IMG/VR virus record: IMGVR_UViG_2541047856_000006
Direction: 5' to 3' (one strand)
Length of the DNA stretch: 37,164 nt
Source: a virus
Lineage: Duplodnaviria; Heunggongvirae; Uroviricota; Caudoviricetes
A program made the position numbers and the translations under genes. The notes below the pieces were generated by a model, which worked only from the letters and a program-made list of their open reading frames with translations, had not been told where the DNA came from and ran no database searches. Below, one piece after another: positions 3,072 to 36,833 of this stretch (positions within the stretch are counted from its first letter, which is position 1; every line of letters begins with the position of its first letter).

Positions 3072-3081
3072 CAGGTGCGTT

Positions 3082-8585: not shown

Positions 8586-8589
8586 ACCA

Positions 8590-13768: not shown

Positions 13769-13791
13769 TAAGACAAAGGAGCAAATTTTTT

Positions 13792-14844: not shown

Positions 14845-14889
14845 TCAACTCACGGCGGACATCATGCCCGCCTGTAACGGAGAGAAAAA

Positions 14890-15690: not shown

Positions 15691-15791
15691 CGACTGACCC
15701 CGTCAGCGGGCGGCGTGCGCGGTGTTCCGGTTTGACTCCGTGACCGTTTACACCGCACACCCACCGCCCGATTTTTTCAGGAGTGAACCCC

Positions 15792-16486: not shown

Positions 16487-16488
16487 CA

Positions 16489-19416: not shown

Positions 19417-19763
19417 CAACCCGCTACACAGGAATGAACCCGGACGGGACGGGAAACCTGAACGATATGGAGCACCTGAAACAGTCAGTCAGGGATATCC
19501 TGACCACCCCGCTGGCAAGCCGGGTTATGCGACGGGAATATGGCAGCCTTGTGCCTGATTTGATTGACGAACCCATGAATAACACCACACGTCTGCAATG
19601 CATGAGTGCTGCCGTGATTGCGCTGACACGATGGGAACCCCGCATTGCCCTGGATGCCATCGACGTTGTCTGGAAAGCGGGAGGCCGCGCCGGGGTGACG
19701 CTGTCGGGCACTGTCATGCAGACCATGCAGAATGTTGAGTTAACCATCACGCTGAAGGAGTAA
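19413..19763 (+). CDS. W: Baseplate protein (gpW-like)
   Basis: 116 aa; overlapping start; conserved order. Confidence 0.8.
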   Translation: MTTRYTGMNPDGTGNLNDMEHLKQSVRDILTTPLASRVMRREYGSLVPDLIDEPMNNTTRLQCMSAAVIALTRWEPRIALDAIDVVWKAGGRAGVTLSGTVMQTMQNVELTITLKE

Positions 19764-19766
19764 ATC

Positions 19767-20663
19767 ATGCCCGCCGTTGACCTTTCCCAGTTACCGGAAC
19801 CCGCCATCATCGCGGAGCCTGACTTTGAGGCAATTCTGGCTGACACAAAGGCCATGATGATTGCGGCTTATCCCGCCGAACAGCGTGAAGCCGTCTCCGC
19901 CGCGCTGGAGCTGGAATCGGAACCCCTGAACGTTATCGCCCAGACAACAGCGTTTCGTGAAATGCTGTTACGCCAGCGGGTCAATGAGGGGGCACGCGCC
20001 TGCATGTTAAGCCACAGCGCCGGGACAGACCTGGACAACCTCGCGGGCAATATGAACACAAAGCGCCTGACCATCACTCCGGCAACGGATACCACCGACG
20101 CAGTGATGGAAAGTGACACCTCGCTGAGACTGCGGGCACAGCGGGCGTACGATGGCCTGAGTGTTGCTGGCCCGTCAGGTGCATACGAGTATTTTGCCCG
20201 CAGCGCCAGCGGTCTGGTGCGTGATGCGCGGGCTATCAGTCCGTCTCCGGCAAATGTGACGGTTTCCATCCTGTCCACTGAAGGCGACGGCACAGCAACG
20301 GAGGCGTTGCTTAATACCGTTCGCGCCGTTCTGAATGCAGAGGATACCCGCCCGGTGGCCGACCGCCTTACTGTACAGAGCGCCAGAATCGTGACATGGC
20401 GGCTGAATGCAAAACTGTACTTTTACCCCGGCCCGGAATCCGAACCTATTCTGGCGGCGGCTGAATCGTCGTTCAGGAAGTGGCTGGCTGAGCAGGGGCT
20501 TATCGGTCAGGACGTGGCGTTGTCCGCCATTGCTGCCGCACTGCATGTGCACGGTGTGCAACGCGTGGAGATAATCGAACCCACACAGAATATGGCCATC
20601 AGCGACATACAGGCGGCGCGCTGTGAGTCGTTCACCATCAGCGAAGGTGGGCGCAATGAGTAA
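19767..20663 (+). CDS. J: Baseplate protein (gpJ-like)
   Basis: 298 aa; conserved order and size. Confidence 0.85.
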   Translation: MPAVDLSQLPEPAIIAEPDFEAILADTKAMMIAAYPAEQREAVSAALELESEPLNVIAQTTAFREMLLRQRVNEGARACMLSHSAGTDLDNLAGNMNTKRLTITPATDTTDAVMESDTSLRLRAQRAYDGLSVAGPSGAYEYFARSASGLVRDARAISPSPANVTVSILSTEGDGTATEALLNTVRAVLNAEDTRPVADRLTVQSARIVTWRLNAKLYFYPGPESEPILAAAESSFRKWLAEQGLIGQDVALSAIAAALHVHGVQRVEIIEPTQNMAISDIQAARCESFTISEGGRNE

Positions 20664-21186
20664 TTCACTGTTACCACCATCAGCCAGCAGTTTCATGCGT
20701 TGTGCCGAAGCTGTCGGAACGCGCATTACAGACATCCCGGTAGACCTCAACACGCTGTGGTCGCCGGACACCTGCCCGGTGCACCTGCTGCCTTATCTCG
20801 CCTGGGCATTTTCCGTTGACCGTTGGGATCGCAACTGGCCGGAAGAGACAAAACGACAGGTGATTCGTGATGCATGGCTGATACACCGACACAAAGGGAC
20901 CATCAGCGCACTGCGCAGGGCCATTGAGCCGCTGGGATACCTCATTCGCGTGTCTGAGTGGTGGGAGTTCGGCGGAGAACCGGGAACATTTACCGTTGAA
21001 GTCGGCACACTGGACAGTGGCGTGACGGAGGAAATGTATCTGGAAATGGAGCGGTTGATTGCTGATGCCCGTCCGGTCAGCCGCCACATGACAGGGCTGA
21101 ATATCATTCAGGAAATTCCGGGGGATATTTTTGCAGCGGCGGCAACTTATGACGGTGAAGTTATTACCATTTATCCGGACGATTAA
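20656..21186 (+). CDS. I: Baseplate/tail protein (gpI-like)
   Basis: ATG at 20656 overlaps the J stop; ~176 aa, as in P2. Confidence 0.8.
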   Translation: MSNSLLPPSASSFMRCAEAVGTRITDIPVDLNTLWSPDTCPVHLLPYLAWAFSVDRWDRNWPEETKRQVIRDAWLIHRHKGTISALRRAIEPLGYLIRVSEWWEFGGEPGTFTVEVGTLDSGVTEEMYLEMERLIADARPVSRHMTGLNIIQEIPGDIFAAAATYDGEVITIYPDD

Positions 21187-21188
21187 GC

Positions 21189-23423
21189 ATGAGTACCACA
21201 ACACGAAAATTTAAAACCGTTATCACCGATACAGGTGCCAAAAAATTAGCTCAGGCAGCCGCTCCAGATGGTAAGCCTGTCCGCCTGACTCATATGGCCG
21301 TGGGCGACGGTGGCGGCACGTTGCCCACACCAGACAGTAAGCAGACCCGTCTGGTGCATGAGGTGTGGCGACACACTGTTAATCGCGTCATCCTGGACGC
21401 AACACATCAGAACCGCATTATTGCGGAGCTGGTTATTCCTCCTGAAACGGGCGGATTCTGGATCCGGGAAATTGGTGTATTTGATGAGCACGGCGATTTA
21501 ATCGCGGTGGGCAATACTGCCGAAAGTTACAAACCAACCGTTGCCGAAGGGTCCGGACGTGCACAAACATTTCGCACCATTCTGACCGTATCCAGCACGG
21601 CCACCGTGGCGCTTACCGTGGATAACACCATGGTGATGGCCACAGTGGATTACGTGGATGACAAACTGAAAGAGCATGAACAGTCACGACGTCACCCGGA
21701 CGCCTCGCTGACCGCAAAAGGCTTTGTTCAACTCAGTAGCGCCACTAACAGCGTGTCTGAAACGCAGGCTGCAACGCCGAAAGCGGTTAAGGCCGCGTAT
21801 GACCTTGCTAACGCAAAATATACCGCTCAGGACGCCACGACGGCACGAAAAGGCCTTGTCCAGCTCAGTAGCGCCACCAACAGCACGTCTGAAACGCAGG
21901 CTGCAACGCCGAAAGCAGTAAAGGCCGCGTATGACCTTGCTAACGCAAAATATACCGCTCAGGACGCCACGACGGCACAAAAAGGGATAGTCCAGCTCAG
22001 TAGTGCCACCAACAGCACGTCTGAAACACTGGCCGCGACATCGAAAGCGGTTAAGGCGGTAATGGATGAAACGAACAAGAAAGCGCCCTTAAACAGTCCT
22101 GCGTTGACCGGAACGCCAACAACGCCAACTGCGCGACAGGGAACGAATAATACCCAAATCGCAAGCACGGCTTTCGTTATGGCTGCGATTGCCGCCCTTG
22201 TAGATTCGTCACCTGACGCACTGAATACGCTGAACGAGTTAGCGGCGGCGCTGGGAAACGACCCGAATTTTGCGACCACCATGACTAACGCGCTTGCGGG
22301 TAAGCAACCGAAAGATGCCACCCTGACGGCGCTGGCCGGGCTTGCTACTGCGGCAGACAGGTTTCCGTATTTTACGGGGAATGATGTTGCCAGTCTGGCA
22401 ACCCTGACAGAAGTCGGGCGGGATATTCTTGCGAAATCGACCGTTGCCGCTGTTATCGAATACCTCGGTTTACAGGAAACGGTAAATCAGGCTTCTGGCG
22501 CATTACAGAAAAAACAGAACGGCGCAGATATTCCGGGAAAAGATACCTTCACCAAAAATATTGGGGCCTGTCGCGCATATAGCGCATGGCTGAATATTGG
22601 TGGCGATAGTCAGGTCTGGACAACTGCGCAATTTATTTCGTGGCTGGAGAGTCAGGGGGCATTTAACCATCCTTACTGGATGTGCAAAGGCTCATGGGCT
22701 TATGCAAATAATAAGGTCATTACAGATACAGGTTGCGGAAATATTTGTCTTGCAGGTGCTGTGGTGGAAGTTATTGGCACCCGCGGCGCAATGACCATAC
22801 GCGTTACCACGCCGAGCACGTCCAGCGGTGGCGGAATCACTAACGCTCAATTCACTTATATTAATCATGGTGATGCTTACGCTCCTGGCTGGCGACGAGA
22901 CTACAACACGAAAAACCAGCAGCCTGCATTTGCTTTAGGGCAAACAGGACGCAGGGTCGCAAATGATAAAGCTGTTGGCTGGAACTGGAATAGCGGCGTT
23001 TATGATGCAGATATCAGTGGCGCATCGACATTAATCCTCCACTTTAATATGAATGCGGGGAGTTGCCCTGCTGTACAGTTCCGCGTGAATTACAGAAATG
23101 GCGGTATCTTTTATCGTTCAGCGCGTGATGGTTATGGCTTTGAAGCTAACTGGTCAGAGTTTTACACCACAACACGCAAACCCTCTGCGGGAGATGTTGG
23201 TGCATATACGCAGGCAGAATGTAACTCAAGGTTTATTACAGGTATTCGCCTTGGCGGTCTGTCATCTGTTCAGACATGGAATGGTCCTGGCTGGTCTGAC
23301 AGGTCAGGTTATGTCGTTACTGGTTCAGTTAACGGAAACCGTGATGAATTAATTGATACAACTCAGGCAAGGCCAATTCAGTATTGCATTAATGGAACGT
23401 GGTATAACGCGGGGAGTATTTAA
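21189..23423 (+). CDS. H: Tail fibre protein (gpH-like), constant N-terminal part plus currently expressed variable C-terminal part
   Basis: 744 aa with three tandem ~43-aa repeats (VQLSSATNS.SET.AAT.KAVKA...); a recombination site lies inside the gene at 22453..22478. Confidence 0.9.
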   Translation: MSTTTRKFKTVITDTGAKKLAQAAAPDGKPVRLTHMAVGDGGGTLPTPDSKQTRLVHEVWRHTVNRVILDATHQNRIIAELVIPPETGGFWIREIGVFDEHGDLIAVGNTAESYKPTVAEGSGRAQTFRTILTVSSTATVALTVDNTMVMATVDYVDDKLKEHEQSRRHPDASLTAKGFVQLSSATNSVSETQAATPKAVKAAYDLANAKYTAQDATTARKGLVQLSSATNSTSETQAATPKAVKAAYDLANAKYTAQDATTAQKGIVQLSSATNSTSETLAATSKAVKAVMDETNKKAPLNSPALTGTPTTPTARQGTNNTQIASTAFVMAAIAALVDSSPDALNTLNELAAALGNDPNFATTMTNALAGKQPKDATLTALAGLATAADRFPYFTGNDVASLATLTEVGRDILAKSTVAAVIEYLGLQETVNQASGALQKKQNGADIPGKDTFTKNIGACRAYSAWLNIGGDSQVWTTAQFISWLESQGAFNHPYWMCKGSWAYANNKVITDTGCGNICLAGAVVEVIGTRGAMTIRVTTPSTSSGGGITNAQFTYINHGDAYAPGWRRDYNTKNQQPAFALGQTGRRVANDKAVGWNWNSGVYDADISGASTLILHFNMNAGSCPAVQFRVNYRNGGIFYRSARDGYGFEANWSEFYTTTRKPSAGDVGAYTQAECNSRFITGIRLGGLSSVQTWNGPGWSDRSGYVVTGSVNGNRDELIDTTQARPIQYCINGTWYNAGSI
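21717..22080 (+). repeat. Tandem ~129-bp repeats (about 2.8 copies) inside H
   Basis: Near-identical nucleotide blocks encode KG(F/L/I)VQLSSATNS(V/T)SETQAATPKAVKAAYDLANAKYTAQDATTA(R/Q); they also generate spurious antisense ORFs. Confidence 0.85.
22453..22478. other. Invertase crossover site (gix/hix-like), left
   Basis: TTATCGAATACCTCGGTTTACAGGAA inside H; inverted copy of the site at 25503..25528; matches the remembered Gin/Hin recombination-site consensus. Confidence 0.85.
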
Positions 23424-23425
23424 TT

Positions 23426-23959
23426 ATGATGCACTTAAAAAATATTACTGCTGGCAACCCTAAAACAAAAGAGCAATACCAGCTAACAAAGCAATTTAAC
23501 ATCAAATGGCTTTATTCAGATGATGGAAAAAACTGGTATGAGGAACAAAAGAATTTCCAGCCAGACACTTTGAAAATGGTCTATGACCATAACGGCGTTA
23601 TTATTTGTATTGAAAAGGATGTTTCAGCAATTAATCCGGAAGGCGCAAGCGTCGTTGAATTACCTGATATTACAGCAAATCGCCGGGCTGATATTTCGGG
23701 TAAATGGATGTTCAAAGATGGCGTAGTGATAAAGCGAACTTATACCGAGGAGGAACAGAGGCAGCAGGCAGAGAATGAAAAGCAAAGCCTGTTGCAACTT
23801 GTCAGGGATAAAACCCAGCTATGGGACTCACAGCTACGGCTGGGTATCATTTCCGACGAGAATAAACAAAAATTAACCGAGTGGATGCTCTATGCGCAGA
23901 AGGTCGAATCCACAGACACCTCCAGCCTGCCAGTAACGTTTCCAGAACAACCAGAATGA
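23426..23959 (+). CDS. G: Tail fibre assembly chaperone (gpG-like), expressed orientation
   Basis: 177 aa directly after H; paralogous to the minus-strand ORF at 23988..24515 (shared ...[12 protein letters not shown]...DITANRRAD...GKWMFKDG...). Confidence 0.8.
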   Translation: MMHLKNITAGNPKTKEQYQLTKQFNIKWLYSDDGKNWYEEQKNFQPDTLKMVYDHNGVIICIEKDVSAINPEGASVVELPDITANRRADISGKWMFKDGVVIKRTYTEEEQRQQAENEKQSLLQLVRDKTQLWDSQLRLGIISDENKQKLTEWMLYAQKVESTDTSSLPVTFPEQPE

Positions 23960-23987
23960 AACAAGGCCCGCTATCGGGCCTTAATTT

Positions 23988-24515
23988 TTATTCAGGCTTT
24001 TGTGGCCATTCAGGATTTGCCGTATCCACACGGCTGACCAGAACACTGTAGCGTTCCCATGACTCCAATCGTGTGCGTTCCTCTTCCGTCGCCATATTCA
24101 GCCTGACAGCGCGTTCCAGTGGCTGAATAACGTTTTCTGCTTCGGAAAGTAACGCAGCCTTTTGTGATTCGGCCTGTTGTTGTTGCTCGTCTGCCGTATA
24201 AATCCGTTTAACCACAGCTCCGTCCTTAAACATCCACTTACCGGAATCATCAGCACGACGATTAGCTGTAATATCAGGAACCTCAACGACGCTATAACCT
24301 TCAGGGTTAAGCGTGGAGGCATCTTTGGTGATGGCGACAATAATATTATTTGCATCGTAAACAATCTTTATTGTGTCTGGCTGAAAGTTTTTCACTTCCT
24401 CATACCAGTTTTTTCCGTCTTCGGACCATAACCAGATAACATCAAAATTCTTTGTTAGCTGATATTGTTCTTTTGTTTTTGGATTTCCAGACTTAATATT
24501 TTTTAAATGCTGCAT
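23988..24515 (-). CDS. Alternative tail fibre assembly chaperone (G')
   Basis: 175 aa paralogue of G in inverted orientation, within the invertible segment. Confidence 0.8.
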
Positions 24516-24518
24516 AAA

Positions 24519-25511
24519 TTACACCTGTGCGACGTTATACCATGTGCCATTGATGTATTTTTGTATTGGTCTGAATACTGCCGGATCATCGCCATCAACT
24601 TCACCGACAATGCCAAGCCCCGTAATTGCATGACCTGATTTCTCATACATCACGCCTTTTTGCATAGTCTGAACAACACGTGTGCCAAGTCGGACATCTC
24701 TCACATAACGTGAGTCAAAATTACCATAATTGCCGGGAATAACTTGCGCACCGCAAAGCCAGTTCCCGTTATTATCCATGTACGCCTGACCATCGGTGCC
24801 ATTGGCTGTCCTTGAGTTATTAATCATGTAGATGCCAAATTGCTTGTTCCCCAGTCCACCTATCATGAACTTTCGGTCGGCGTGATTCTGGCGAAGTAAC
24901 GCCTGAGCGCTATCAGTGTTAACTATATTTTTCCCAAAGATAGCGTTGTTATCGCGCATCTGAATCCACATACCATTACTGCTGTTAATAGCAAAACGGT
25001 CTGAAAGTGTCTCCCCTGAAACATTAAGGCCACGCCCCATCGAAACAGCGCCAGTAGCGTTATTAATCCATAATGGCCTTAATCCGTTATAAGTCCCCAT
25101 GTTGTCACCGGAGTTTGTCAACATGAAGTATGTATTTGAACCATCATTACGAATAAAGAATCCGTAATTACCATAAGCAATACGTAGGCCGTTTGCTGAT
25201 TTTGATATGACTTCGCCATTTACAATGGCATTGACAAGAACATACAAAGCATCCCATTTAAGATTCATCAGGTCTTTTGTTGTGGTGCTTTGTTTGCTTC
25301 TCCATTTGAAATATTCATTGCCGTTGTCGCCTGTTTCAAACCACATGTATGAATCAGTGTCACCATCGGCATCATTTTTAAATCCAATCTTCGCCCAGTC
25401 AGTATTTCGAATCCAGGCAAGGATTGAGTCATTTTCAAAAGTAAGCCCACCGGACAAGGTATCGCCATTTTTTTGCACGGCGTTACCAGCTCTGTTTACC
25501 GTTTCCTGCAA
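24519..25511 (-). CDS. Alternative tail-fibre C-terminal variable segment (promoterless H' cassette)
   Basis: Begins inside the right crossover site with MQETVN..., the same residues (LQETVN) found at the crossover point within H. It would fuse to the constant part of H after inversion. Confidence 0.8.
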   Translation of the reverse strand: MQETVNRAGNAVQKNGDTLSGGLTFENDSILAWIRNTDWAKIGFKNDADGDTDSYMWFETGDNGNEYFKWRSKQSTTTKDLMNLKWDALYVLVNAIVNGEVISKSANGLRIAYGNYGFFIRNDGSNTYFMLTNSGDNMGTYNGLRPLWINNATGAVSMGRGLNVSGETLSDRFAINSSNGMWIQMRDNNAIFGKNIVNTDSAQALLRQNHADRKFMIGGLGNKQFGIYMINNSRTANGTDGQAYMDNNGNWLCGAQVIPGNYGNFDSRYVRDVRLGTRVVQTMQKGVMYEKSGHAITGLGIVGEVDGDDPAVFRPIQKYINGTWYNVAQV

Positions 25512-25528
25512 ACCGAGGTTTTAGATAA
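25503..25528. other. Invertase crossover site (gix/hix-like), right
   Basis: TTCCTGCAAACCGAGGTTTTAGATAA, the inverted counterpart of 22453..22478, immediately upstream of the invertase gene. Confidence 0.85.
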
Positions 25529-25582
25529 TGGCCGTTTCTGACCTGCATGGCATGATTTACGCTTTTGGACGGGAGATTCAGC

Positions 25583-26170
25583 GTGCTGATTGGCTATGTA
25601 AGGGTATCAACAAATGACCAGAATACAGACCTGCAACGAAACGTTCTTGTTTGTGCAGGATGTGAACAAATATTTGAAGATAAATTAAGCGGGACAAAGA
25701 CAGACCGACCGGGATTAAAACGCGCTTTAAAGCGCCTTCAAAAAGGTGACACGCTGGTTGTCTGGAAACTGGATCGCCTCGGGCGAAGCATGAAACATCT
25801 GATTTCTCTCGTCGGGGAACTACGGGAGCGAGGGATTAATTTTCGCAGTCTGACCGACAGCATAGATACATCTTCTCCAATGGGGCGTTTTTTCTTCCAC
25901 GTGATGGGTGCCCTGGCTGAAATGGAACGTGAATTAATTGTTGAACGTACACTGGCCGGACTGGCAGCAGCGCGCGCACGGGGGCGCACAGGCGGACGTC
26001 GCCCGAAGCTGACAAAAGAACAGCATGAGCAAATAGCAAGGCTGATTAAAAACGGTCACGACAGAAAACAACTGGCAATAATTTACGGCATTGGTACATC
26101 GACGATTTATCGTTACCACCCCGCAGGAGAATCAAGCGGAACAATAGAGAAGAGTCAGAAAACAAAATAA
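25583..26170 (+). CDS. Serine-recombinase DNA invertase (Hin/Gin/Cin family)
   Basis: MLIGYVRVSTNDQNTDLQRN...LVVWKLDRLGRS...GRFFFHVMGALAEMERELI... with a C-terminal helix-turn-helix. Start taken at the GTG at 25583 (ORF frame begins at 25565). Confidence 0.93.
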   Translation: MLIGYVRVSTNDQNTDLQRNVLVCAGCEQIFEDKLSGTKTDRPGLKRALKRLQKGDTLVVWKLDRLGRSMKHLISLVGELRERGINFRSLTDSIDTSSPMGRFFFHVMGALAEMERELIVERTLAGLAAARARGRTGGRRPKLTKEQHEQIARLIKNGHDRKQLAIIYGIGTSTIYRYHPAGESSGTIEKSQKTK

Positions 26171-26198
26171 CCGCTAATCTGACCATTAGCGGTTTTTG
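26171..26198 (+). terminator. Rho-independent terminator after the invertase gene
   Basis: CCGCTAAT-ctgacc-ATTAGCGG followed by TTTTT. Confidence 0.7.
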
Positions 26199-26205
26199 TG
26201 TTAAA

Positions 26206-26700
26206 TCAGAACAGCCCTTTAACTGAACTGGCCGCGCTGTTAAGAGATGATGTCACCTTATCTTTGAAGCCGGACAGCATATCGCTGAACGATGAGGATT
26301 GCAGGCGCTCCCGCAAATCCTCATCACAGCGTTCAAGGGTCAGTGAAAATTCTATCTTTTTCGCCTTACCGTAGCGATCAAACTCGGAACGGGTCGTATT
26401 CGTTCCGGTCAGGACATACATGCCGTAAATCTGCCCGACGCCATCAATCAAAGGCCAGGGTCGTCCTGTATACGCCTGCGTGGTCAGCAGCGACAGCGAC
26501 ACTTCGCCACCTGTAATTTCAGGATAAAGCACACCAGAAAGAACGATGCGATCATCACCTGCACCGATATACTGCCAGCTTGCTGAACGGTTAACGCGTT
26601 CATTTTTCACATGCCGCCAGCTTTTGTTTTGCTGTAACTGCTGATGCGGCAGCGTGCGCAGCTCAAAAACAAACATGCCGTAGATCATCATCATGGCCAT
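26206..26700 (-). CDS. U: Tail protein gpU-like
   Basis: 164 aa directly downstream of the tape measure gene on the same strand; size matches P2 U. Confidence 0.75.
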   Translation of the reverse strand: MAMMMIYGMFVFELRTLPHQQLQQNKSWRHVKNERVNRSASWQYIGAGDDRIVLSGVLYPEITGGEVSLSLLTTQAYTGRPWPLIDGVGQIYGMYVLTGTNTTRSEFDRYGKAKKIEFSLTLERCDEDLRERLQSSSFSDMLSGFKDKVTSSLNSAASSVKGLF

Positions 26701-26706
26701 GACTCC

Positions 26707-29550
26707 TCAATCTTTATCGTAAAAACTGCCACGCCCGGCACGGGCGCGCCGTTCCATTTCTGCCCTGACCATTTCACCGACCAGTTTCGCCAGTTCGCGG
26801 GGATTCTGTGTAACAACGTTATGCAGATGAACATGAATTTCACCGCCAAATCCGGAGGCAACAGGCTCCCGGTTACGGGAAGTTGCAGGAACTGATGCCA
26901 CTGGCGATCGTATGGCCTCTGCCACCGGGCGGGAGCTGGCCGCAACAACAGGGACCAGCGCCGGAGGCAGCGGAGCCGGAACCACAGGTGTGATATTAAT
27001 TGCGGGGGCAGGCTTACTGACCTGCGCAATCTTCCGCTCCTGCCACTCCCCACGAACGGCAAGTGCGCGGGGCAGGTTCTTAAAGACAATATCGCCGGGG
27101 CCAATACGTTTTTTCGTCTCATCAACCAGCTTACCTGTGTTATCAGCAATTTTGCTGAGTCTGCGTAGCGTACCGGTATTGCTGTCTGTGAGCGGTTTGT
27201 TGTCTTTGGGTTTATCACCTCCGGTGCCATTGCCATTTTCCACAGGCTTCGGCGGATTGATTTTCGCCAGGTCCCCCTGAAGCAAGGCAACCTTGTCCTG
27301 AAGAATGGCCGCACGCTGTGCGTCTTCGATTTTCTTGCGCGCCCTTTCCGCTTCATCCGGAAGCACACCGAGCTTTTCAAGTATCCACGCCAGCGTATCC
27401 AGCAACATTTTTGCAGGTGTCAGAACAAGTTGTAACGCACCGCCAAGAACGTTACCGAATATCTCGCCAGCACTGGTACATTTATCCAGCGTTTCCTTGC
27501 TGGACTCCATCGGTGACAGCAGCGATTTAAACCAGTTAAACACCTGGCTGATCCCACTCCCGATTGCGTCAAAAACAGGACCAAACCGTTCAAAGGTTTC
27601 GCGCAACGGGGTCAGCCTTTCCATAATCCCGCTGAACACCCCGGCAAAAAATGCCCTGATGGGATCCCAGTATTTCCAGATAAGAACGGCAGCTCCGGCA
27701 AGCGCAGCCACGATAAGACCAACCGGACTGAACAACGCCCCGATAGCGCCTCCCAGTAAAGAAACGGAACCCGTCACCATTCCCCACAGCGCAGGCAACA
27801 CCCTGACGACATTCATTGACCGGGTAAGAATGTCAAAACCAAGACGCAGGGTGGCCAGCTTCCCGTAAAGCACCCCAATAACCAGCGACAACGAGCCAAC
27901 CGTTGCAGTCATTGCCAGCAGTGCACCGCCTGCAATCAGTAGCTGGCGCGTCAGTGCGGGATGGGCCTGCGCCAGCGCCGTCACCTTTGATACCACACGC
28001 GTGAGCCACTGCGTGACAGAACGCAGCGGACCGTCAATCAGATCTGCAATGCGGATGCGCAACCCTTCCCATGCACTGCTGAGTGATTTCAGATCGCCGT
28101 CAAGGTTGTTGGCCATAACCTTTGCTGTGCGTTCAGCCTCACCGCGTGCGCCTTCAAGTTCTTTTCTCAGTTTAGGTAAGGAACCGTCACCCGCTGCATC
28201 AACGAGCGCCATAAACGATGTGAAAGCCTCTTCTCCGGCAATGTCCTTAAAGAACGATACCCGGTCAACTTCCCCGTATTTGCGGGTGGCTTTATAAAGA
28301 TCGGCCTGCACATCCTCCATCGGGCGCATTTTGCCGTTCGCGTCAGAGACTGCCACACCAAGCTCTTTCAGCGCCTCTGCTGCCGCCTTTGGCGGTGATG
28401 CCAGACGAGCCAGGCTGGCACGCATTGCCGTCCCGGCATCACTTCCCCTGATACCCATATTCGCCAGCACGCCCGCCATCGCTGCGGCCTGCTCCAGCGA
28501 TATTCCCAGCTTGCCCGCCACCGGACCTGCATATTTCATGGTTTCGCCCAGTGCGCGAAGGTCAGTGTTGGTACGGGTAAACGCTGCGGTGAGCGTGTCA
28601 CCGACCCGGTCCATCTGGTCGGCAGAAAGACCGAACTGCGTCAGGATGTTTGAGCCAATATCCGCCGTCTCGCCGAGATCCATACCGCCAGCCGTTGCCA
28701 TGCTCAGCACACCGGGAAGCGCAGCCTGAATGGCCTGTGGTGTGAAGCCAGCCATTGCAAGAAATGCCTGTCCACTGACGGCATCTCCAGCGGTGAACTG
28801 CGTTTCAGAGCCAAGTTTTAACGCCTGCTCACGCAGCGCCTTAAACTGTGGGCTGTTCTGGTCGATTCGCGTCAGCGCCTGAACGCGGGACATCTCTTTC
28901 CCGAACCCGATCGCAGGCTGCAAAAAACGCCCGGCAGCATAGCCGCCCGCCGCTGCCGCACCAATTGCCAGCGCACCACCTGTTTTCAGTTTTCCCGCGG
29001 TTTCCTGCACGCGCGAATACCGCTCACGCGCCCGCGTTACACGCGCAAGCGCCTGCCGTTCGCGTTCAAGCTGGTTGTTGTACTGTTCGGTGCGTCTGAT
29101 GGCCTGCTGGATGGTGTTATCGCTGCCTGTCAGGGAAATGCCGTGGCGTTTCAGCTCTCCGCCAAGCTCCCGCATTTTCTGAATTTCCCGTGTGCGCGAT
29201 TCATTCAGGCGTTCAAGCCGGGTGCTTAACTGCTGCATCAGCTTTTGTTGTTTTTCGCTGAGCACTGTACCCGTGCGTTGTAACTGATTAAGGGCGTTAA
29301 GCTGGCGTCGTGCTTTCACGATACCCGCATCCGCTTTACTGACAGCGTCGCGGGCGCGCTCAAATGAACGCGCCTGACGCTCGAGATTTTTGATCGCCCC
29401 CTGCGTTCGCTGGATGGAGTCACCAAACTGCCCCATCAGGCGGCGGGCGTTTTCGGCAGGCCGGGTCAGCCTGTCAACGGCGCTGAAAGCGACCCGGATA
29501 TCAAGAGTCTTCATTGTCTGCATTCCCGCTGCGAAGTGCCGCCCGCTCAC
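26707..29550 (-). CDS. T: Tail tape measure protein (gpT-like)
   Basis: 947 aa, largely helical with Ala/Gly-rich hydrophobic central segments; position after E/E'. Exact start uncertain (M at 29550, 29523 or 29514). Confidence 0.85.
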   Translation of the reverse strand: MSGRHFAAGMQTMKTLDIRVAFSAVDRLTRPAENARRLMGQFGDSIQRTQGAIKNLERQARSFERARDAVSKADAGIVKARRQLNALNQLQRTGTVLSEKQQKLMQQLSTRLERLNESRTREIQKMRELGGELKRHGISLTGSDNTIQQAIRRTEQYNNQLERERQALARVTRARERYSRVQETAGKLKTGGALAIGAAAAGGYAAGRFLQPAIGFGKEMSRVQALTRIDQNSPQFKALREQALKLGSETQFTAGDAVSGQAFLAMAGFTPQAIQAALPGVLSMATAGGMDLGETADIGSNILTQFGLSADQMDRVGDTLTAAFTRTNTDLRALGETMKYAGPVAGKLGISLEQAAAMAGVLANMGIRGSDAGTAMRASLARLASPPKAAAEALKELGVAVSDANGKMRPMEDVQADLYKATRKYGEVDRVSFFKDIAGEEAFTSFMALVDAAGDGSLPKLRKELEGARGEAERTAKVMANNLDGDLKSLSSAWEGLRIRIADLIDGPLRSVTQWLTRVVSKVTALAQAHPALTRQLLIAGGALLAMTATVGSLSLVIGVLYGKLATLRLGFDILTRSMNVVRVLPALWGMVTGSVSLLGGAIGALFSPVGLIVAALAGAAVLIWKYWDPIRAFFAGVFSGIMERLTPLRETFERFGPVFDAIGSGISQVFNWFKSLLSPMESSKETLDKCTSAGEIFGNVLGGALQLVLTPAKMLLDTLAWILEKLGVLPDEAERARKKIEDAQRAAILQDKVALLQGDLAKINPPKPVENGNGTGGDKPKDNKPLTDSNTGTLRRLSKIADNTGKLVDETKKRIGPGDIVFKNLPRALAVRGEWQERKIAQVSKPAPAINITPVVPAPLPPALVPVVAASSRPVAEAIRSPVASVPATSRNREPVASGFGGEIHVHLHNVVTQNPRELAKLVGEMVRAEMERRARAGRGSFYDKD

Positions 29551-30030
29551 GCCAGCTAACCACTTCGCCGGGCGTCATCATGAAGATTTCGGCGGGCGAC
29601 CAGTTAAAAATAACGGCAATATCTGCCACAAAGTCTTCTATGTGCTCAAAGCACACAACCGTGATCAGGCTTCCGTCGCCTGTTCGTTCTTCCCGCCAGA
29701 GTCCGCACCGCTCAAAAAATTTACGGCAACCACACATAACTGAATAAAGTCACGGGATGCCATTTTTTTGATCGTCACTTCATCCAGTCGCGGTGATGTC
29801 ACGCGTGACAGCAGCGTAAACATGGATTCCGCTTTCAGATTCAGCACATCAGACAGCGACAAATCTCGCAGAGATCCAGCCTGCTCAATAGCCCCGGTGA
29901 TCTCCACATACGTGATTTTTTCGCCGCCTCGCTCAATTGGTTGGGTAAGTTTTACGCCACGCTCACTGGTTTCTTTCACAGTGTCAGCAACTACCGTGTT
30001 TTCGGTATCGATGTTTTTCGTCTCTTTCAT
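29501..30030 (-). CDS. Tail assembly chaperone fusion E+E' made by -1 programmed frameshift
   Basis: The E frame (29665..30030) and the overlapping -1 frame (to 29501) meet at the slippery heptamer TTTTTTG (minus strand; plus-strand coordinates 29713..29719). Confidence 0.6.
29665..30030 (-). CDS. E: Tail assembly chaperone (gpE-like)
   Basis: 121 aa between the tail tube and tape measure genes, the conserved position of E. Confidence 0.7.
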   Translation of the reverse strand: MKETKNIDTENTVVADTVKETSERGVKLTQPIERGGEKITYVEITGAIEQAGSLRDLSLSDVLNLKAESMFTLLSRVTSPRLDEVTIKKMASRDFIQLCVVAVNFLSGADSGGKNEQATEA

Positions 30031-30084
30031 CAGGAAACTCCTTTCAGTCAGAGGCGACGCACTGCGCCGCCTGCATATTACTTA

Positions 30085-30597
30085 TCAGCCAAGCCCGAGC
30101 GCGGAACGGATGCGATCGGGCACAATGTCCTTGCCGTCCTTCCGGTAAATGAAGTTCAGCAGGTCAATCTCCCACAACGGGCGATCGTTAACACTCAGCT
30201 TGTAGTAGGTGTTTTTAATGGCGTAAGTGTGTGATGTGGCTTCGCCCTGTTTGGCTTCCCCCATATCAATTTCCGTCACACGTCCGCGCATTTCGACTTC
30301 ATACAAGTCGCTTTCTGCATCGGTGTAGTATTCACCCGCAAAACGCAGCAGCGTGCCGTCAATCGTGCCGCCATACTTAAGGAACAGCTCACGAACTGCG
30401 CCCCCCATGACAAAGCTCGCATCAAGCGCGGAGTCGTCCAGGCCGAGATCAATACTTACCGCCCCCATCATGCCACCACCCCGGTAGCTGTCGGTTTTGC
30501 GCGTCAGCTTAGGCAAAGTGACGGACGTCACCTTACCCACTTCGTTTTCACCATCCACAAACAGCGTAAAAAAGCGAAGATGTTTTGGCACAGCCAT
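30085..30597 (-). CDS. FII: Tail tube protein (gpFII-like)
   Basis: 170 aa; TLPKLTRKT...YRGGGM... and KQGE motifs match the remembered P2 FII. Confidence 0.88.
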   Translation of the reverse strand: MAVPKHLRFFTLFVDGENEVGKVTSVTLPKLTRKTDSYRGGGMMGAVSIDLGLDDSALDASFVMGGAVRELFLKYGGTIDGTLLRFAGEYYTDAESDLYEVEMRGRVTEIDMGEAKQGEATSHTYAIKNTYYKLSVNDRPLWEIDLLNFIYRKDGKDIVPDRIRSALGLG

Positions 30598-31781
30598 CAG
30601 GCACCTCCCAGCACCGCAAATGCGGGTTCAAAGTATTCATCAGTAAACGTCTGGTAAAGCTCCATGTCTTCCAGTGGCGGAACGGGCGTATATTTGTAGC
30701 GAATACGCACACGCCCCTGACGTAAATCCGTGGTGCTGTTATCCACCACGTCATACCAGCACTCCGCGCCAATCAGTTTCCCGGCAGTCACCAGTGAATC
30801 CAGTTTTGCCCTGATGGCACTGATAACATCCTTCACGTTCGCAGGCGTCAGTGGACTGTCGATGGTTTCAAACTGCGCTTCCGCAATTGAATCAGCCAGC
30901 ACCTGTGCGGTTCGGGTATACACCTCAAAAATGTAGGCGTTCGTTTCCGGTGTGCGGTTGCCCCAGAAGCGGAACCCGTTGCGACGAATAATGGTCGTGA
31001 TTTCTTTGTTGTTGAGGCTGTTGGCATCGCAGTCTTCGGCCTGCCACGACCAGAACACATGCCTCGACATCCCCAGCACATTTTTAACCGGAACGTTGGA
31101 CAGCGATTTGTGCCAGCCCTGCTCATGGTCAATGTACGCACGAAGGCCGCACGCATAAGCAGGCGCGGGGAACGTTTCGTTTTCGCCACTTTTCGGGTTG
31201 TAGGCGATGAAGTCCGGCCATAAGAGCATCACTTCACGTTCGTTGAATTTCTGGCGGTAGGTAATCGCTTCAGCCATCGTGTTACAGCCGTGACATGAGG
31301 CATACACAAATGCGCGCAGTTTACCCGCAATCACGCACAGGGATTTTGTCACCGCCTCCGTGTCCAGCTCCGGCGCGGCCAGAATACGCGGACGGTATCC
31401 GATGCTTTCATCCTGCTCTGCAACAAGCAGCGCATACATCCCCGTATAGCTGCCGTCATCCTCAGAACCACCGATAACCAGTTGATCCTGCGTCTTTTCG
31501 TCTTCTTCTTTGTGTTCAGCCACGCGAACGACGATCACCTTTGTGCTCACCTGGTCTGCGATGGCCTTAAGCGCACGATAAAGCGTCCCCGTTGTTCCGC
31601 ATTTTCCCAGCACGTCATTGACGCGGGTCAGCAGTGTGGGCTTGTTCAGCGGGAACAGCTTCGCGTCCGCATCATCCGCCGTTGCCACGATACCGATAAC
31701 GCTGGAATCAACATCGTTAATCGCTGTTACCAGGTCGGTATTTTCCGTAACACGGGCACCATGAAAACGAGTTTCACTCAT
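30597..31781 (-). CDS. FI: Tail sheath protein (gpFI-like)
   Basis: 394 aa; FPLNKP, EQGWHKSLSNV, IRRNGFRFWGNRT, YTPVPPLE match the remembered P2 FI. Confidence 0.93.
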   Translation of the reverse strand: MSETRFHGARVTENTDLVTAINDVDSSVIGIVATADDADAKLFPLNKPTLLTRVNDVLGKCGTTGTLYRALKAIADQVSTKVIVVRVAEHKEEDEKTQDQLVIGGSEDDGSYTGMYALLVAEQDESIGYRPRILAAPELDTEAVTKSLCVIAGKLRAFVYASCHGCNTMAEAITYRQKFNEREVMLLWPDFIAYNPKSGENETFPAPAYACGLRAYIDHEQGWHKSLSNVPVKNVLGMSRHVFWSWQAEDCDANSLNNKEITTIIRRNGFRFWGNRTPETNAYIFEVYTRTAQVLADSIAEAQFETIDSPLTPANVKDVISAIRAKLDSLVTAGKLIGAECWYDVVDNSTTDLRQGRVRIRYKYTPVPPLEDMELYQTFTDEYFEPAFAVLGGA

Positions 31782-31938
31782 AGCTTCAGCCCCTTGTATC
31801 CGTTAAATGATTCGGCAACAATCATCACCCACCACGCGCGTAATCTCACCCCTGCGCCGTTCTCCCGCCACGGCGACAACAAAAAGCAGTAACCCCCTCC
31901 GCACGCACATGCGACCATGCCACACAGGGAGGGAGCAG

Positions 31939-33048
31939 ATGACCGACACCACCATGCAATTGCTCAGTCAGGGCACAGACCCCGTGAAAATGCCGGATTT
32001 TGATATTCTCGCGGAGGGTAAAACGCTGTCCGGCGTGGCAGAACGCCTGATGAGCCTGTCACTGACCGACAACCGGGGATTTGAAGCGGACCAGCTCACC
32101 ATCACGCTGGATGATGCGGATGGTCAGTTGCAGCTACCGCCACGGGGCGCGCGTCTGACGGTTCTCATTGGCTGGAAAGGGGAACCGCTGACTGAAAAAG
32201 GCACTTACATTGTTGATGAAATCGCTCACGAAGGACCGCCGGACAGGCTGACCGTTTCAGCCAGAAGCGCAGATTTTCGGGATGAATTTAACGTTAAACG
32301 TGAGGTGTCCTGGCATGATGTGACCGTTGAGCGTGTGGTATCCGCCATCGCTCATCGGTACGGTCTGAAACCGCAAATCAGCGAAATGCTGATGGATATC
32401 GAAATCGACCACGCCGACCAGACCGAAGAAAGTGACATGTCCTTCCTTACGCGCATGGCGGAAATGCTGGGCGCAATCACCACGGTAAAAAGCGGTAATC
32501 TGTTATTCATCATGCCCGGCGGTGGCGTGAACGCACAGGGCCAGCCGTTGCCATCGTTCGCCATCACACGCAGCAGCGGCGATCGCCATCAGTTCCGCAT
32601 TGCTGACCGCGAGGCGTATACGGGGGTACGCGCTTACTGGCTTGATCTTAATTACGGGAAAAAGAAAAAAGTCAGCGTGAAACGCCGCAAACCGCCAAAA
32701 CCGAAAAAAGAGAAAAGCAGCAGCCGTGAAGGTGATTATATGGAAGGCGCGGAAGGCAATGTGTTTGTGTTACGCAAGACTTATCAGAACGAGCAGGCAG
32801 CAAGACGCGCAGCGGCGGCAAAGTGGCAACAACTACAACGCGGAGCCGCATCATTCTCCATCACGCTGGCACGTGGACGAGCAGAACTCTACCCCGAAAT
32901 GCATGGCACGGTAACAGGATTTAAAAGCGAGATTGATAATCAGGACTGGATTATTGCAAAAGCCGAGCACACCATTGATGACAGCGGCTTTACCACGCAG
33001 CTTGAGCTTGAGGCAAAAATCCAGGAATGGATAGCGGAAACAGAGTGA
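31939..33048 (+). CDS. D: Tail protein D (gpD / late control D family)
   Basis: ORF frame 31807..33048; start placed at the ATG at 31939 preceded by GGGAGGGAG (MTDTTMQLLSQGTDPVKMPDFDILAEGKT...); ~370 aa, as for P2 D. Confidence 0.85.
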   Translation: MTDTTMQLLSQGTDPVKMPDFDILAEGKTLSGVAERLMSLSLTDNRGFEADQLTITLDDADGQLQLPPRGARLTVLIGWKGEPLTEKGTYIVDEIAHEGPPDRLTVSARSADFRDEFNVKREVSWHDVTVERVVSAIAHRYGLKPQISEMLMDIEIDHADQTEESDMSFLTRMAEMLGAITTVKSGNLLFIMPGGGVNAQGQPLPSFAITRSSGDRHQFRIADREAYTGVRAYWLDLNYGKKKKVSVKRRKPPKPKKEKSSSREGDYMEGAEGNVFVLRKTYQNEQAARRAAAAKWQQLQRGAASFSITLARGRAELYPEMHGTVTGFKSEIDNQDWIIAKAEHTIDDSGFTTQLELEAKIQEWIAETE

Positions 33049-33095
33049 GCAACTGGGATGCATTAGTTCAGACACAGGCTAGCATGCTTACGTAC

Positions 33096-33134
33096 GGCAC
33101 AGAAGCAAACCTAATTGGAGTTTTGCTCTGTGCC
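33096..33134 (+). other. Stable stem-loop downstream of D (possible terminator)
   Basis: GGCACAGAAGCAAA-loop-TTTGCTCTGTGCC (~13-bp stem with one bulge) followed by TTTC. Confidence 0.4.
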
Positions 33135-33258
33135 TTTCACCGACTGGCCAAGTGTAACCCGCCTTACACCAAGACGAATTATAATCGGCAACAATGTCAG
33201 TAGTTACTATAAATGTTTATAAACAAAAATTTATTTCTCCGAAGCTACAAGCACTACA

Positions 33259-36057
33259 CTAAATCTCAGCAATCTTTTTTTTACTGTGCTGTTCTATTAT
33301 CCACTCTGCTTCCGCTTGGTATTCATGAGCTAACTCTCGAAGAATTCGGGCAAATCGATGAAAGCCTAGAAGTTCCATTGCATCAGACTTAGTATGATAT
33401 TGTTGGGCCAACTCCAATTCCGGTTTACCTTCAGGGTCAACAATGTAGACACCACGCGAATTTATTACCGCATTCTTATAACCAGTACGCACTTTATCAA
33501 GTTCACGTCTATTCAAAAACTCGGCCAGTTCTGGAAGTATCCAATGCTCGTCATTTGCAGGGCTAAAAATTAATATGCTTCCAATTCTATGATAAGCAAA
33601 ATCTAAATGGCCTGACTTTTCGCATTCTGTTTGAACAAAATCAAACCAGTTATTAAACGCATTGGCATCAAACTTGCCTTCAGCATCAACACCCGGAATC
33701 TTTTTCCAATCATCAAGTAAATAGCGTGAGTTTTTGGCAATATTTATTTCACTTTCAGATAGTTCTTTACTTGCTTTTTGAAATTCTGATCGATACGCAT
33801 ATTGAATGACTTCACAAAAAAAACTGGGTTCACTTGCTAGTTTTTTCTCTAATACTTGAGGATGCAACGAATCATTGGCTCCCCTGTTAATTACAGGCAG
33901 GTATGCCCATTCAATCTTTACTAAGTCGTCATCTGAAACAGTGTTATCATTTTGAATATAATTCACAAGTTCATTAAATGAGTGAATATCAAACCGCTCA
34001 ATATTTTCTGTGGTTCTAATTGATTGCAATAGAGCAAGCACAACCTTGCTGCTATCAACTAAATTATCGATATGTAAAATTCGAGATAAACAATCTATTG
34101 CCATCAAGGGACGGTCTACTTTAATCAAGCAATCTACAGCAAAATAAATTTCTTCCGTTGAATCACAGCAGTATGCATTAACATGGGTATTTTTCCAATA
34201 CTCGAAAGGAAAATCATCAAATGAAGCGTTTAATGCATCCCACGTTTCTTTTTTAAACGGTAACAAAAGAAAAAAAGCAATCTTTTCTTGAGCACTCCAG
34301 TCATTAATAACTGCCAACACCCATGATTTTCCTTCTCTGTAGTTCTTAGCCTGTACATAACCAGAAGCAAGAGAATTTTCCTTTTTAATATCACTAACAA
34401 TAAGTTTTTTCAGTATATCTAAAGGGATTTCTAGATCTTCTGCGACCAGACTACTACCAACAAACTCAGGTCTTTCAATAGAAAGAGAGAATTCTAAGAC
34501 TCCGTCAATACCATTAACAGTATATATTTCGTATATTGATTGCCCTCGTTCTTTTGTCAACCTTTCTTCTTGGTCCCGCCAGTTTCCATTTTCATCAAAT
34601 AGGAAGTAACTATTTTGTGCAAAAAGTCGTTTGCTATAAAGCATAGGATTTTCGGGCTTCAAGACTGTAGAAACATCTTTGATTTTTTCATTCTGTTCTG
34701 GTTGTATTGCCCAATAAGCACCTGAGAATCTTTTGTTTTTGTTATAAACTTCTAAACATTTTTCCCACACCGCCAACTTCAATTCAGCACTATCTGTTTT
34801 TTTAGAAAAATCATACAATAATTTAATTGCATCATCGAATTTAAATGGCGCTAAACTACCAATATTTTCAACTAAATCAACAAGTCTTAATGATGATTTA
34901 CTTGCCAATTCAATTGTTAATTGAGTGTATCTTTCAATCTGAGTACGACACTCATCATCCGATGGCCTTTTATTAAAACCGTTAGGAATAAAGTTTCTAA
35001 AAGTTGGAATATGTGTGCCAGATGTTACTTGCGTGTTGTTGGGTAACAACTGAACTAAAACACGCCATGCTGTATCGGGCCACTCCCTTGCCAATGCTTT
35101 GAAAGCAGCAATACGTCTATCTATATCAGCTGTAGTATGAGGAAGCCATGGTAACAATATGTTGATTATCGAGTTAAGTGGCCTGTTAGCCCAATTGCCA
35201 CCAGGATCATGGCTATCCAGCTCCCCTAATATTACTAAAGAGCGAGATAAATAGTTAGGCGCCCAAGCTAATCCTTCAATAGCCCATAGCAGTCCTGTCA
35301 TATAATTCCGACCTGAAATTCCACCGATACCTTCCTGTGCAAAAAGTGAATCAAATGGCTTGTCTTGGTGAGATGCAGCATTTTCCACTTCGTCGATAAA
35401 ACAGTCAGGAGCACTTTCCGCAAGCATAACTTGAATATCTTGCGTACTAGCCCATAATTGCCAGCTAGAAGCCGAAAAAACCTCTTTAACCACACTTGAG
35501 GCGCAATATTGCCCTTTATATTTTGAGCAATTAGTAAGTAACTCTTGCTTTGTTGCAACTAATGCCAACCCTTCGGATAGTCCTTTCCTTATTAATCGGC
35601 TATGTGGTAAAACCTTCCCATAAATTACTGCTGCATAACGCTCTTCAGGTGCCAGTTCAAATTGTGGGTCGATTGTTTTAAAAACGGATACAACAGTCGT
35701 CCGAAACAAATCCAAATGATCATCGAATAATCTTGACGATACCGTTTGAAATGTTTGTATTCTATCTTTAAAACTCCAAGAACCTCTCTCATGAATCAAA
35801 GGACTATCTTGCATCCCTTCAATTATTCTTATTTTTCGAATCCAACTGTCATATGACTCGCCAATAAGGCTTGTAATTATATTAATATCACCATTATTTT
35901 TTTCATCCCAGCAACCGACTAAAACAGCAATCGCTAACTCAGTCGCATAATCAACATTATCAATATTGTATATAGTTAAGTTACCAGCAACATTATGGCC
36001 TGTTCCGGCATGATTTTGACTAACTGAACTGCAGCTATGAATGTTATCCATAGACAC
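33259..36057 (-). CDS. Large hypothetical protein (932 aa) in an AT-rich island; function unknown
   Basis: Long uninterrupted ORF, AT-rich and clearly different in composition from the flanking phage genes. No Walker A, helicase or recognisable nuclease motif was seen by eye. GTG/ATG start coupled to the stop of the upstream small gene. Confidence 0.65.
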   Translation of the reverse strand: MSMDNIHSCSSVSQNHAGTGHNVAGNLTIYNIDNVDYATELAIAVLVGCWDEKNNGDINIITSLIGESYDSWIRKIRIIEGMQDSPLIHERGSWSFKDRIQTFQTVSSRLFDDHLDLFRTTVVSVFKTIDPQFELAPEERYAAVIYGKVLPHSRLIRKGLSEGLALVATKQELLTNCSKYKGQYCASSVVKEVFSASSWQLWASTQDIQVMLAESAPDCFIDEVENAASHQDKPFDSLFAQEGIGGISGRNYMTGLLWAIEGLAWAPNYLSRSLVILGELDSHDPGGNWANRPLNSIINILLPWLPHTTADIDRRIAAFKALAREWPDTAWRVLVQLLPNNTQVTSGTHIPTFRNFIPNGFNKRPSDDECRTQIERYTQLTIELASKSSLRLVDLVENIGSLAPFKFDDAIKLLYDFSKKTDSAELKLAVWEKCLEVYNKNKRFSGAYWAIQPEQNEKIKDVSTVLKPENPMLYSKRLFAQNSYFLFDENGNWRDQEERLTKERGQSIYEIYTVNGIDGVLEFSLSIERPEFVGSSLVAEDLEIPLDILKKLIVSDIKKENSLASGYVQAKNYREGKSWVLAVINDWSAQEKIAFFLLLPFKKETWDALNASFDDFPFEYWKNTHVNAYCCDSTEEIYFAVDCLIKVDRPLMAIDCLSRILHIDNLVDSSKVVLALLQSIRTTENIERFDIHSFNELVNYIQNDNTVSDDDLVKIEWAYLPVINRGANDSLHPQVLEKKLASEPSFFCEVIQYAYRSEFQKASKELSESEINIAKNSRYLLDDWKKIPGVDAEGKFDANAFNNWFDFVQTECEKSGHLDFAYHRIGSILIFSPANDEHWILPELAEFLNRRELDKVRTGYKNAVINSRGVYIVDPEGKPELELAQQYHTKSDAMELLGFHRFARILRELAHEYQAEAEWIIEQHSKKKIAEI

Positions 36058-36377
36058 TACCTCGTAATTTTATTTCCACCAATATTATCACCAGTGCCAC
36101 TATGGTTTTGAATAATGACAGTTGTTGCATGAGGTTTTATAGACGAGAGTATTTTTTGAATTTCACTACTATCCAATAGTTTTCTTTCAATTGCTATTTC
36201 ACTCATTTCATCGTTCAAAGACAGTTTTTCAAGTTCTTTAGCTAAAGCAGGGGCCACAGCCTCATCAACAACCCAATTTTTTAACTTTGCTTTTATTGAA
36301 GTTGCAGTAATCGAAACATGATGTTTGAGCATGTCATAAACTATGCCAGAAAGTATCGTCGAAGATAAAAAATCCAT
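36057..36377 (-). CDS. Small hypothetical protein (106 aa), first gene of the island operon
   Basis: Same strand and composition as the 932-aa gene; its C-terminus (IIQNHSGTGDNIGGN) echoes the N-terminus of the large protein (SQNHAGTGHNVAGN). Confidence 0.6.
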   Translation of the reverse strand: MDFLSSTILSGIVYDMLKHHVSITATSIKAKLKNWVVDEAVAPALAKELEKLSLNDEMSEIAIERKLLDSSEIQKILSSIKPHATTVIIQNHSGTGDNIGGNKITR

Positions 36378-36572: not shown

Positions 36573-36833
36573 ATGTTCCGTTGCCCGCTTTGTGGCGCAT
36601 CTGCCCGCATCCGTACCAGTCGTCCGGAAAATGATTCAAATACCGTGCGGCAAAAGTATTACCAGTGTAACAACTTGGAATGCGGCGTCTGCTTCTCAAC
36701 ACTGGAAGCTTTCCATAAGTTCACATCAAAACACGCCTCAAGTGTTCACTCTTCAGAGGGTATCCCGTGGCATGCTCTGCCTGCTTCACACAGGGGAAAC
36801 AGTCAGATGAGTTTGCCCTTACCTCAGGATTAA
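36573..36833 (+). CDS. ogr: Late-gene transcription activator, Ogr/Delta zinc-finger family
   Basis: MFRCPLCGASARIRTSR...YYQCNNLECG matches the remembered P2 Ogr Cys4 zinc finger (MFHCPLC...YHQCQNVNC); preceded by GGGAGG. Confidence 0.9.
   Translation: MFRCPLCGASARIRTSRPENDSNTVRQKYYQCNNLECGVCFSTLEAFHKFTSKHASSVHSSEGIPWHALPASHRGNSQMSLPLPQD

Follow-up and report, generated by a model that had tools for sequence, protein, structure and literature searches.

The window, by which we mean the whole stretch of 37,164 nucleotides that was analysed, corresponds to a complete P2-like prophage. Comparison with P2 proteins by tblastn recovered Q, P, O, N, M, L, X, R, S, V, W, J, I, H, G, FI, FII, E, T, U, D, ogr, int, C and A, with identities ranging from 26 to 62%, except for one copy of G at 94%. 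According to the same comparison the window is collinear with P2, the sole exception being the block of genes from FI to U, which is reversed. The P2-type gene set is accompanied by an activator of the Ogr/Delta zinc-finger type (Cys pattern CX2CX24CX4C in the ogr-like product), and judged on these two sequence characters the window is a member of the Peduoviridae. The Pfam families detected were GpU, PhageMin_Tail, Phage_tube, Phage_sheath, Phage_GPD, Resolvase and Ogr_Delta. The genes are arranged as follows.

1008-2135, minus strand: int
4697-7549, plus strand: replication gene A
9980-12777, minus strand: Q and P
12932-23959, plus strand: O through G (the start of O was taken from the PGAP annotation of a relative)
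23988-25511, minus strand: alternative tail-fibre pair, inverted
26206-26700, minus strand: U (gpU tail protein), last gene of the leftward FI-U operon (Pfam Phage_P2_GpU, E 1.5e-38; 46% identity to P2 U)
26707-29514 or 26707-29550, minus strand: T (gpT tape measure; Pfam PhageMin_Tail, E 1e-56; 32% identity to P2 T)
29501-29737, minus strand: E' frame, overlapping E (called "GpE family" by PGAP in relatives)
29665-30030, minus strand: E (gpE; 32% identity to P2 E by tblastn)
29713-29719, minus strand: TTTTTTG (minus-strand sequence), -1 slippery site of E/E'
30085-30597, minus strand: FII (gpFII tail tube; Pfam Phage_tube, E 7.5e-47; 42% identity to P2 FII)
30597-31781, minus strand: FI (gpFI tail sheath), first gene of the leftward operon (Pfam sheath domains; 46% identity to P2 FI)
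31939-33048, plus strand: D (gpD baseplate hub), a separate rightward transcription unit (Pfam Phage_GPD; 48% identity to P2 D)
33259-36377, minus strand: cargo island of 3.1 kb and low GC, two genes, GapS6a-type
36573-36833, plus strand: ogr-like late activator gene (Pfam Ogr_Delta, E 5e-14, above the gathering score; 38% identity to P2 Ogr)

Two of these assignments deserve a comment. The start of T lies at 29514 in the P88 annotation and at 29550 if the longest open reading frame is taken. E gave no match in the Pfam search, and its identification is a sequence-based one, made through tblastn to P2 E and the frameshift site. Otherwise the open reading frames, the Pfam matches and the tblastn results agree with the earlier note on this DNA, in which U, T, E/E', FII and FI had been placed on the minus strand and D and ogr on the plus strand, and the sequence likewise agrees with the divergence of FI and D across a spacer of 157 bp (31782-31938). 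The one correction to that note is that D and ogr are not neighbours in the window, where the minus-strand cargo island intervenes between the two.

The corresponding genes of P2 (FI, FII, E, E', T, U and D) form one rightward operon that is transcribed from pF, with U abutting D. The homologous genes of the window have the same internal order and share with the P2 operon both the TTTTTTG frameshift of E/E' and an activator of the Ogr/Delta type, but the genes from FI to U are inverted as a block and D stands as a separate, divergent unit, with protein identities of 32-48%.

The U end of the block lies next to a tail-fibre region with its own inversion system, which comprises the following features.

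22453-25528: invertible tail-fibre segment, with gix-like sites at 22453-22478 and 25503-25528 in inverted repeat
25583-26170, plus strand: Gin-like serine invertase (Pfam Resolvase and HTH_7; 91-96% nucleotide identity to the gin genes of Mu, D108 and SfMu)
26169-26194, both strands: bidirectional intrinsic terminator, between the stop of the invertase gene (26170) and the stop of U (26206)

The terminator scan found a hairpin with a 10-bp stem and U-runs on both strands, whose fold has energies of -15.7 and -16.1 kcal/mol (z = -5.2 and -5.5 compared with shuffled sequence). This bears out the proposal that U ends at a bidirectional terminator held in common with the invertase gene, and it is at this hairpin that the leftward operon would end. 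The position of a serine invertase gene directly beside the U end also lends some appeal to the idea of a programmed segment, in which the Gin-like enzyme or another recombinase would still flip FI-U and the window would represent one of the states; an involvement of the invertase had indeed been hinted at in the earlier note. Each gix-like site has two mismatches to Mu gixL, while any further candidate in the window has at least 9 mismatches out of 26, and the two sites flank the tail-fibre segment only. The search of the whole window returned no gix site other than these two, and near 26170-26206 and 31782-31938 every candidate had 9 mismatches or more, in accordance with the previous observation that the FI-D junction has no gix-like site. 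A search for inverted repeats likewise found none that joins the two ends of the FI-U block. The best pair of repeats near these ends (25895-25920 and 31964-31989, 26 nt, 77%) was considered and rejected, as it falls within coding sequence and is no better than expected by chance.

The window is similar to Mu (G segment and Gin) and P1 (C segment and Cin) in having a tail-fibre cassette with two gix-like sites and a gin gene, but its Mu-like inversion covers 22453-25528 only, whereas FI-U is devoid of such sites and has one fixed orientation. The orientation is also a single one in the genomes surveyed (1358 versus 0, see below), most of the relatives with the same orientation of the block have no invertase adjoining U, and a flip would part FI from its promoter side. 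It is consequently extremely improbable that FI-U is a programmed invertible segment. The hinted role of the enzyme is not upheld by the relatives that share the layout, and the invertase is best read as a neighbour of the FI-U block and not as the cause of its inversion.

The region 25400-33200 is 98.4% identical at the nucleotide level to phage P88 over 97% of its length, and 1000-25999 is 96.1% identical over 72%, values which are a different measure from the formal whole-genome intergenomic similarity. Following ICTV practice, the genus Xuanwuvirus is delimited at about 70% nucleotide similarity across the genome, and the values obtained are consistent with membership. The record of P88 annotates FI-U and D on the same strands as found here, and that of phiSM has the same layout, with FI-U divergent from D; both are active phages (PMC5285337, PMC6456863). 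More generally, the Xuanwuvirus phages P88, P884B11, phiSM, 520873 and 500465-2 have the gene content, order and strands of the window, as well as the spacer of 157 bp and a gin-like invertase adjoining U, with 95-98% nucleotide identity over the region. The window differs from them in the variable parts of the tail fibres, and from P88 in the cargo between D and ogr, which is the GapS6a-type two-gene island in the window and is absent from P88.

The same layout is common in complete E. coli genomes. A query of 7.8 kb extending over both junctions had a collinear match in 1104 of them, and a probe for the FI|D junction (761 nt) was intact in 1358 of the 1376 matching genomes, while an artificial probe joining the end of U to the start of D, as in a P2-type junction, had a single-piece match in none of 1413 genomes. 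The share of complete E. coli genomes that carry the clade is about 25%. These numbers bear directly on the possibility, also raised in the earlier note, that the block of 5.6 kb was flipped while the source genome was assembled. An artefact of this kind would draw on the difference from P2, and nothing more, together with the short intergenic regions that bound the block. It is contradicted by the contiguity of both junctions, in the same orientation, in the 1104 complete genomes, by the like orientation in the genomes of phages P88 and phiSM as well as in some 40 prophages from other genera, and by the alternative junction being found in 0 of 1413 genomes; moreover, the ends of the block have no inverted repeats able to mislead an assembler. 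For the window the probability of such an error is negligible, and for the lineage this alternative is refuted. In E. coli strain 300709 the junction is 100% identical to that of the window, in a prophage that is different and partly deleted.

The comparison with relatives has two sides for the initial reading of this locus: the layout is confirmed, while its status as an anomaly is lost, because the arrangement is normal for the lineage, an outcome that had been named beforehand as speaking against an anomaly. The inverted block is in fact the standard organisation of Xuanwuvirus and neighbouring genera, visible in all deposited genomes, and is in this sense already known. In the literature searched, on Xuanwuvirus, phage P88 and P2-like gene order, the inversion is nowhere described explicitly.

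The distribution of the arrangement beyond E. coli was assessed with a scan for the D protein, using one genome per species, which yielded 47 loci. About 40 of these are prophages from approximately 20 genera of the Enterobacterales (including Salmonella, Citrobacter, Klebsiella, Enterobacter, Serratia, Erwinia, Pantoea, Pectobacterium, Brenneria, Edwardsiella and Symbiopectobacterium), with D proteins 65-98% identical to that of the window. Every locus that could be judged, being long enough and having both FI and D detected, has U, T, E, FII and FI on the minus strand and D and ogr on the plus strand. The Klebsiella phages of Reginaelenavirus and Reipivirus have the same layout genome-wide. 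Conversely, when a fused U+D protein was used as query against 50,697 phage records, 522 records matched, and U and D were adjacent on one strand in 387 of them. All of the adjacent records that were sampled have identities of at most 51%, and the set includes P2, other P2-like phages of Klebsiella and of Yersinia, and phages of Burkholderia, Ralstonia, Pseudomonas, Acidovorax and Xanthomonas; in the 48 records with 60-99% identity, D was matched alone. Because U and D remain neighbours in the more distant P2-like phages, the adjacency is taken to be ancestral and the split to be derived in one deep enterobacterial clade. This points to one old and fixed inversion in the ancestor shared by Xuanwuvirus, Reginaelenavirus, Reipivirus and many unnamed prophages, and the proposal of an ancient event that left the block reversed with respect to P2 is supported by both the tblastn orientation and the survey of relatives and phage records.

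The same arrangement could in principle have arisen by replacement, if the ancestor of the clade had gained FI-U from another P2-like phage and inserted it in reverse. Phage genomes are mosaic, the tail-fibre and gin region of the window is clearly mosaic with Mu, and at such divergence an inversion leaves no diagnostic scar. Yet the proteins of the block are 32-46% identical to those of P2, and those of the flanking genes 36-62% (tblastn), so that the block has diverged from P2 neither more nor less than its flanks. With a divergence from P2 that matches that of the flanking genes, it is not a module recently acquired from elsewhere. FI, FII and U also diverge in step with D within the clade, and the GC content runs on into the neighbouring structural genes. 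A replacement is accordingly considered unlikely, although it is a less remote prospect than either an artefact or a programmed segment. The outcome and the present-day function would be identical whether the block was inverted in situ or replaced. Taken together, the window is very probably a P88-like prophage (Xuanwuvirus, Peduoviridae) in which the inversion of FI-U represents one ancient rearrangement, canonical in its clade, and neither an artefact nor a product of the Gin-like invertase.

As regards the expression of D, the spacer between FI and D was compared with those of relatives, in an alignment of 42 distinct FI|D spacers. The features considered, including those of the second divergent spacer between P and O, are listed below.

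12778-12931: P|O divergent spacer
12840-12861: dyad GTTCT-N12-ACAAC in the P|O spacer, exact match
31782-31938: FI|D divergent spacer, 157 bp, putative bidirectional late promoter region
31821-31826, minus strand: -10-like hexamer GATGAT of the predicted leftward FI promoter, in a conserved block "ATAATC"
31859-31880: dyad GTTCT-N12-ACAAC, putative activator site of the Ogr type
31913-31918, plus strand: -10-like hexamer GACCAT of the predicted rightward D promoter, in a block "CGCGCGC.TG..A..AT"

The length of the spacer is 145-157 bp in 41 of the 42 relatives, and the parts that are conserved are both start codons, a dyad at the centre, a -10-like block towards FI and a block towards D. The start of D is the ATG at 31939, which is preceded by a GGAGG-like ribosome-binding site and is conserved in the 42 relatives; the start of the open reading frame at 31807 was considered and rejected in favour of this conserved ATG. 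The centre of the dyad is located 88.5 nt from the ATG of FI and 69.5 nt from the ATG of D in the window, and 78-88 nt and 65-72 nt, respectively, across the relatives. Read off the alignment, 39 of the 42 spacers have T[GC]T-N12-ACA at this position, and the motif can be extended to G(G/T)T(C/G)T-N12-ACAAC. The strict form of the motif is present in 31 of the 42 spacers, compared with 2 other sites in 801 kb of flanking DNA. On the FI side, the -10-like hexamer is GATTAT in most relatives. On the D side, GACCAT is a weak element; its counterparts in the relatives are AATCAT or AACTAT, a conserved CGCGCGC precedes it, and the pattern recurs on the P side of the P|O spacer. The dyad motif is found once per P|O spacer in three diverged genomes, namely the window and the Reginaelenavirus and Reipivirus genomes. 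A third exact match to the dyad in the window, within T (27429-27450), is unconserved in relatives and was taken as chance.

According to PMC3931495, which refers to Christie & Calendar 1985 and Julien & Calendar 1995, a P2-type late promoter has a dyad TGT-N12-ACA upstream of the transcription start. P2 has four late operons (PMC3931495). The exact form of this dyad has two matches in the window, both intragenic and below the number expected by chance, and none in the late spacers. The exact P2 consensus missed these spacers because the half-site of the window is TCT, one mismatch away from TGT-N12-ACA, and the motif was recovered by aligning the spacers of the relatives. A scan for the sigma-70 consensus found no promoter in the FI|D spacer, as is expected if transcription depends on an activator, though such a negative does not itself speak for an activator-dependent promoter.

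The closest parallel is found in P2 itself. Its record annotates one activator site (3057-3087) for both pP and pO, whose transcription starts (3016 and 3127) are located 55-56 nt either side of the site, and a further activator site (17555-17583) for pF. In each of these two sites GTTGT-N12-CCA(T/A)C lines up in register with the dyad of the window. In the pP/pO region of P2, as in the FI|D spacer of the window, about 150-175 bp lie between the divergent genes and contain one dyad in the middle (GTTGT-N12-CCATC in P2, GTTCT-N12-ACAAC in the window), whose centre is about 55 nt from each transcription start, as annotated in P2 and as predicted in the window. In P2 the shared-site design is used at P/O only, whereas the clade of the window would use it at P|O and, as its conserved elements suggest, at FI|D.

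These similarities suggest a scenario for the origin of the arrangement. The FI-U block may have carried its late promoter along; if the block moved with this promoter, the Ogr site formerly before FI would therefore now be between FI and D. The single dyad would then activate FI-U leftward and D rightward, at about 55 nt from each predicted start, with transcription starting near 31814 on the minus strand and near 31925 on the plus strand, and ogr would probably be transcribed with D where the two adjoin. From the combination of conserved elements and the P2 parallel, the dyad in the spacer probably does drive FI-U in one direction and D in the other. Points that tell against this model are the TCT half-site of the window, the weak hexamer on the D side and the identity of only 38% between the Ogr of the window and that of P2. 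The earlier suggestion that D needs a promoter of its own is supported in so far as D has a separate control region upstream, marked by the conserved elements of the spacer, from which the promoter itself is predicted. For the fuller account we have a slight preference and no more: the inversion would have been tolerated through the dyad symmetry of the Ogr site, with pF carried along to give a second promoter of the pP/pO style before D, making D (with ogr) an autonomous late unit whose D-ogr junction later served as an insertion site for cargo or defence genes. If true, it would show clearly how the symmetry of an activator site can buffer a rearrangement that splits an operon. The apparent reuse by the clade of the P2 design of one activator site for two divergent promoters is a small addition, and a testable one.

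For comparative work on P2-like prophages, the survey indicates that the gene order of P2 is unfit as a template for every one of them, as a large enterobacterial clade has FI-U inverted and D standing as a unit by itself. The strongly conserved control element carried by the FI|D spacer is relevant to annotators as well. D is truncated by PGAP in many genomes, and errors are frequent in the calling of the D start and of the FI|D spacer. In the phiSM record, both D and the sheath gene are mislabelled.

The longest open reading frame for gene D begins at 31807 on the plus strand and runs (31807-31938) through the spacer, a putative promoter region, that separates D from FI. When the relatives were aligned, this segment contained indels and no coding conservation was found in it, which rules out 31807 as the start of D. 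The true start is accordingly placed by the alignment at 31939. The D gene is also affected by errors of annotation in public records. In the record of phiSM, an active P88-like phage (L054, OR565851; 2294-4745), D carries the label ‘ogr’, and the name ‘late control gene D’ is given to the sheath gene. PGAP often shortens D (as in the compared loci L002 and L051) to an 801-nt ‘VgrG/Pvc8 family’ CDS, the start of which lies about 300 nt within the gene.

The dyad taken as the Ogr-type activator site, GTTCT-N12-ACAAC, has a third exact match in the window:

27429-27450, minus strand, within the tape-measure gene T

This copy lacks conservation in the relatives and was set aside as a chance occurrence.

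Downstream of D, the interval that extends to ogr holds the following feature:

33259-36377, minus strand, two-gene island of low GC content (34-40%)

The 106-aa protein of the island matches the NCBIfam family antiphage_GapS6a (E 7e-40) as well as Pfam HetE-N, and its 932-aa partner gave zero matches in Pfam, NCBIfam and PADLOC. The content of the gap between D and ogr differs between relatives: it measures 46 nt in P88 and in one Salmonella prophage. In E. coli CT30 it carries SIR2 together with an ATP-binding protein, and in E. coli strain 300709 it holds a hypothetical gene and an IS3 element. The gap looks like a hotspot for the insertion of defence and cargo genes in the P88-like clade.

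Two other regions of the window are as follows:

22453-26170, invertible tail-fibre cassette with gin, resembling the Mu G segment
7626-8901, plus strand, ORFs between the replication and portal genes, with annotated counterparts in relatives

The cassette carries alternative H C-terminus and G genes located on opposite strands, and its gin shares 91-96% nucleotide identity with those of Mu, D108 and SfMu; it is a mosaic derived from Mu within a P2-like genome. The counterparts of the 7626-8901 ORFs are annotated as plasmid segregation protein ParM and as a plasmid partitioning/stability protein, whereas in P2 this place is occupied by old and tin.

D genes 98% identical to that of the window were also seen in two assemblies labelled as Firmicutes, on a Vagococcus sp. 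WN89Y contig (L005), which additionally has a full enterobacterial tail block, and on a contig of a Planococcaceae MAG (L046). Both are probably enterobacterial contigs contaminating these assemblies.
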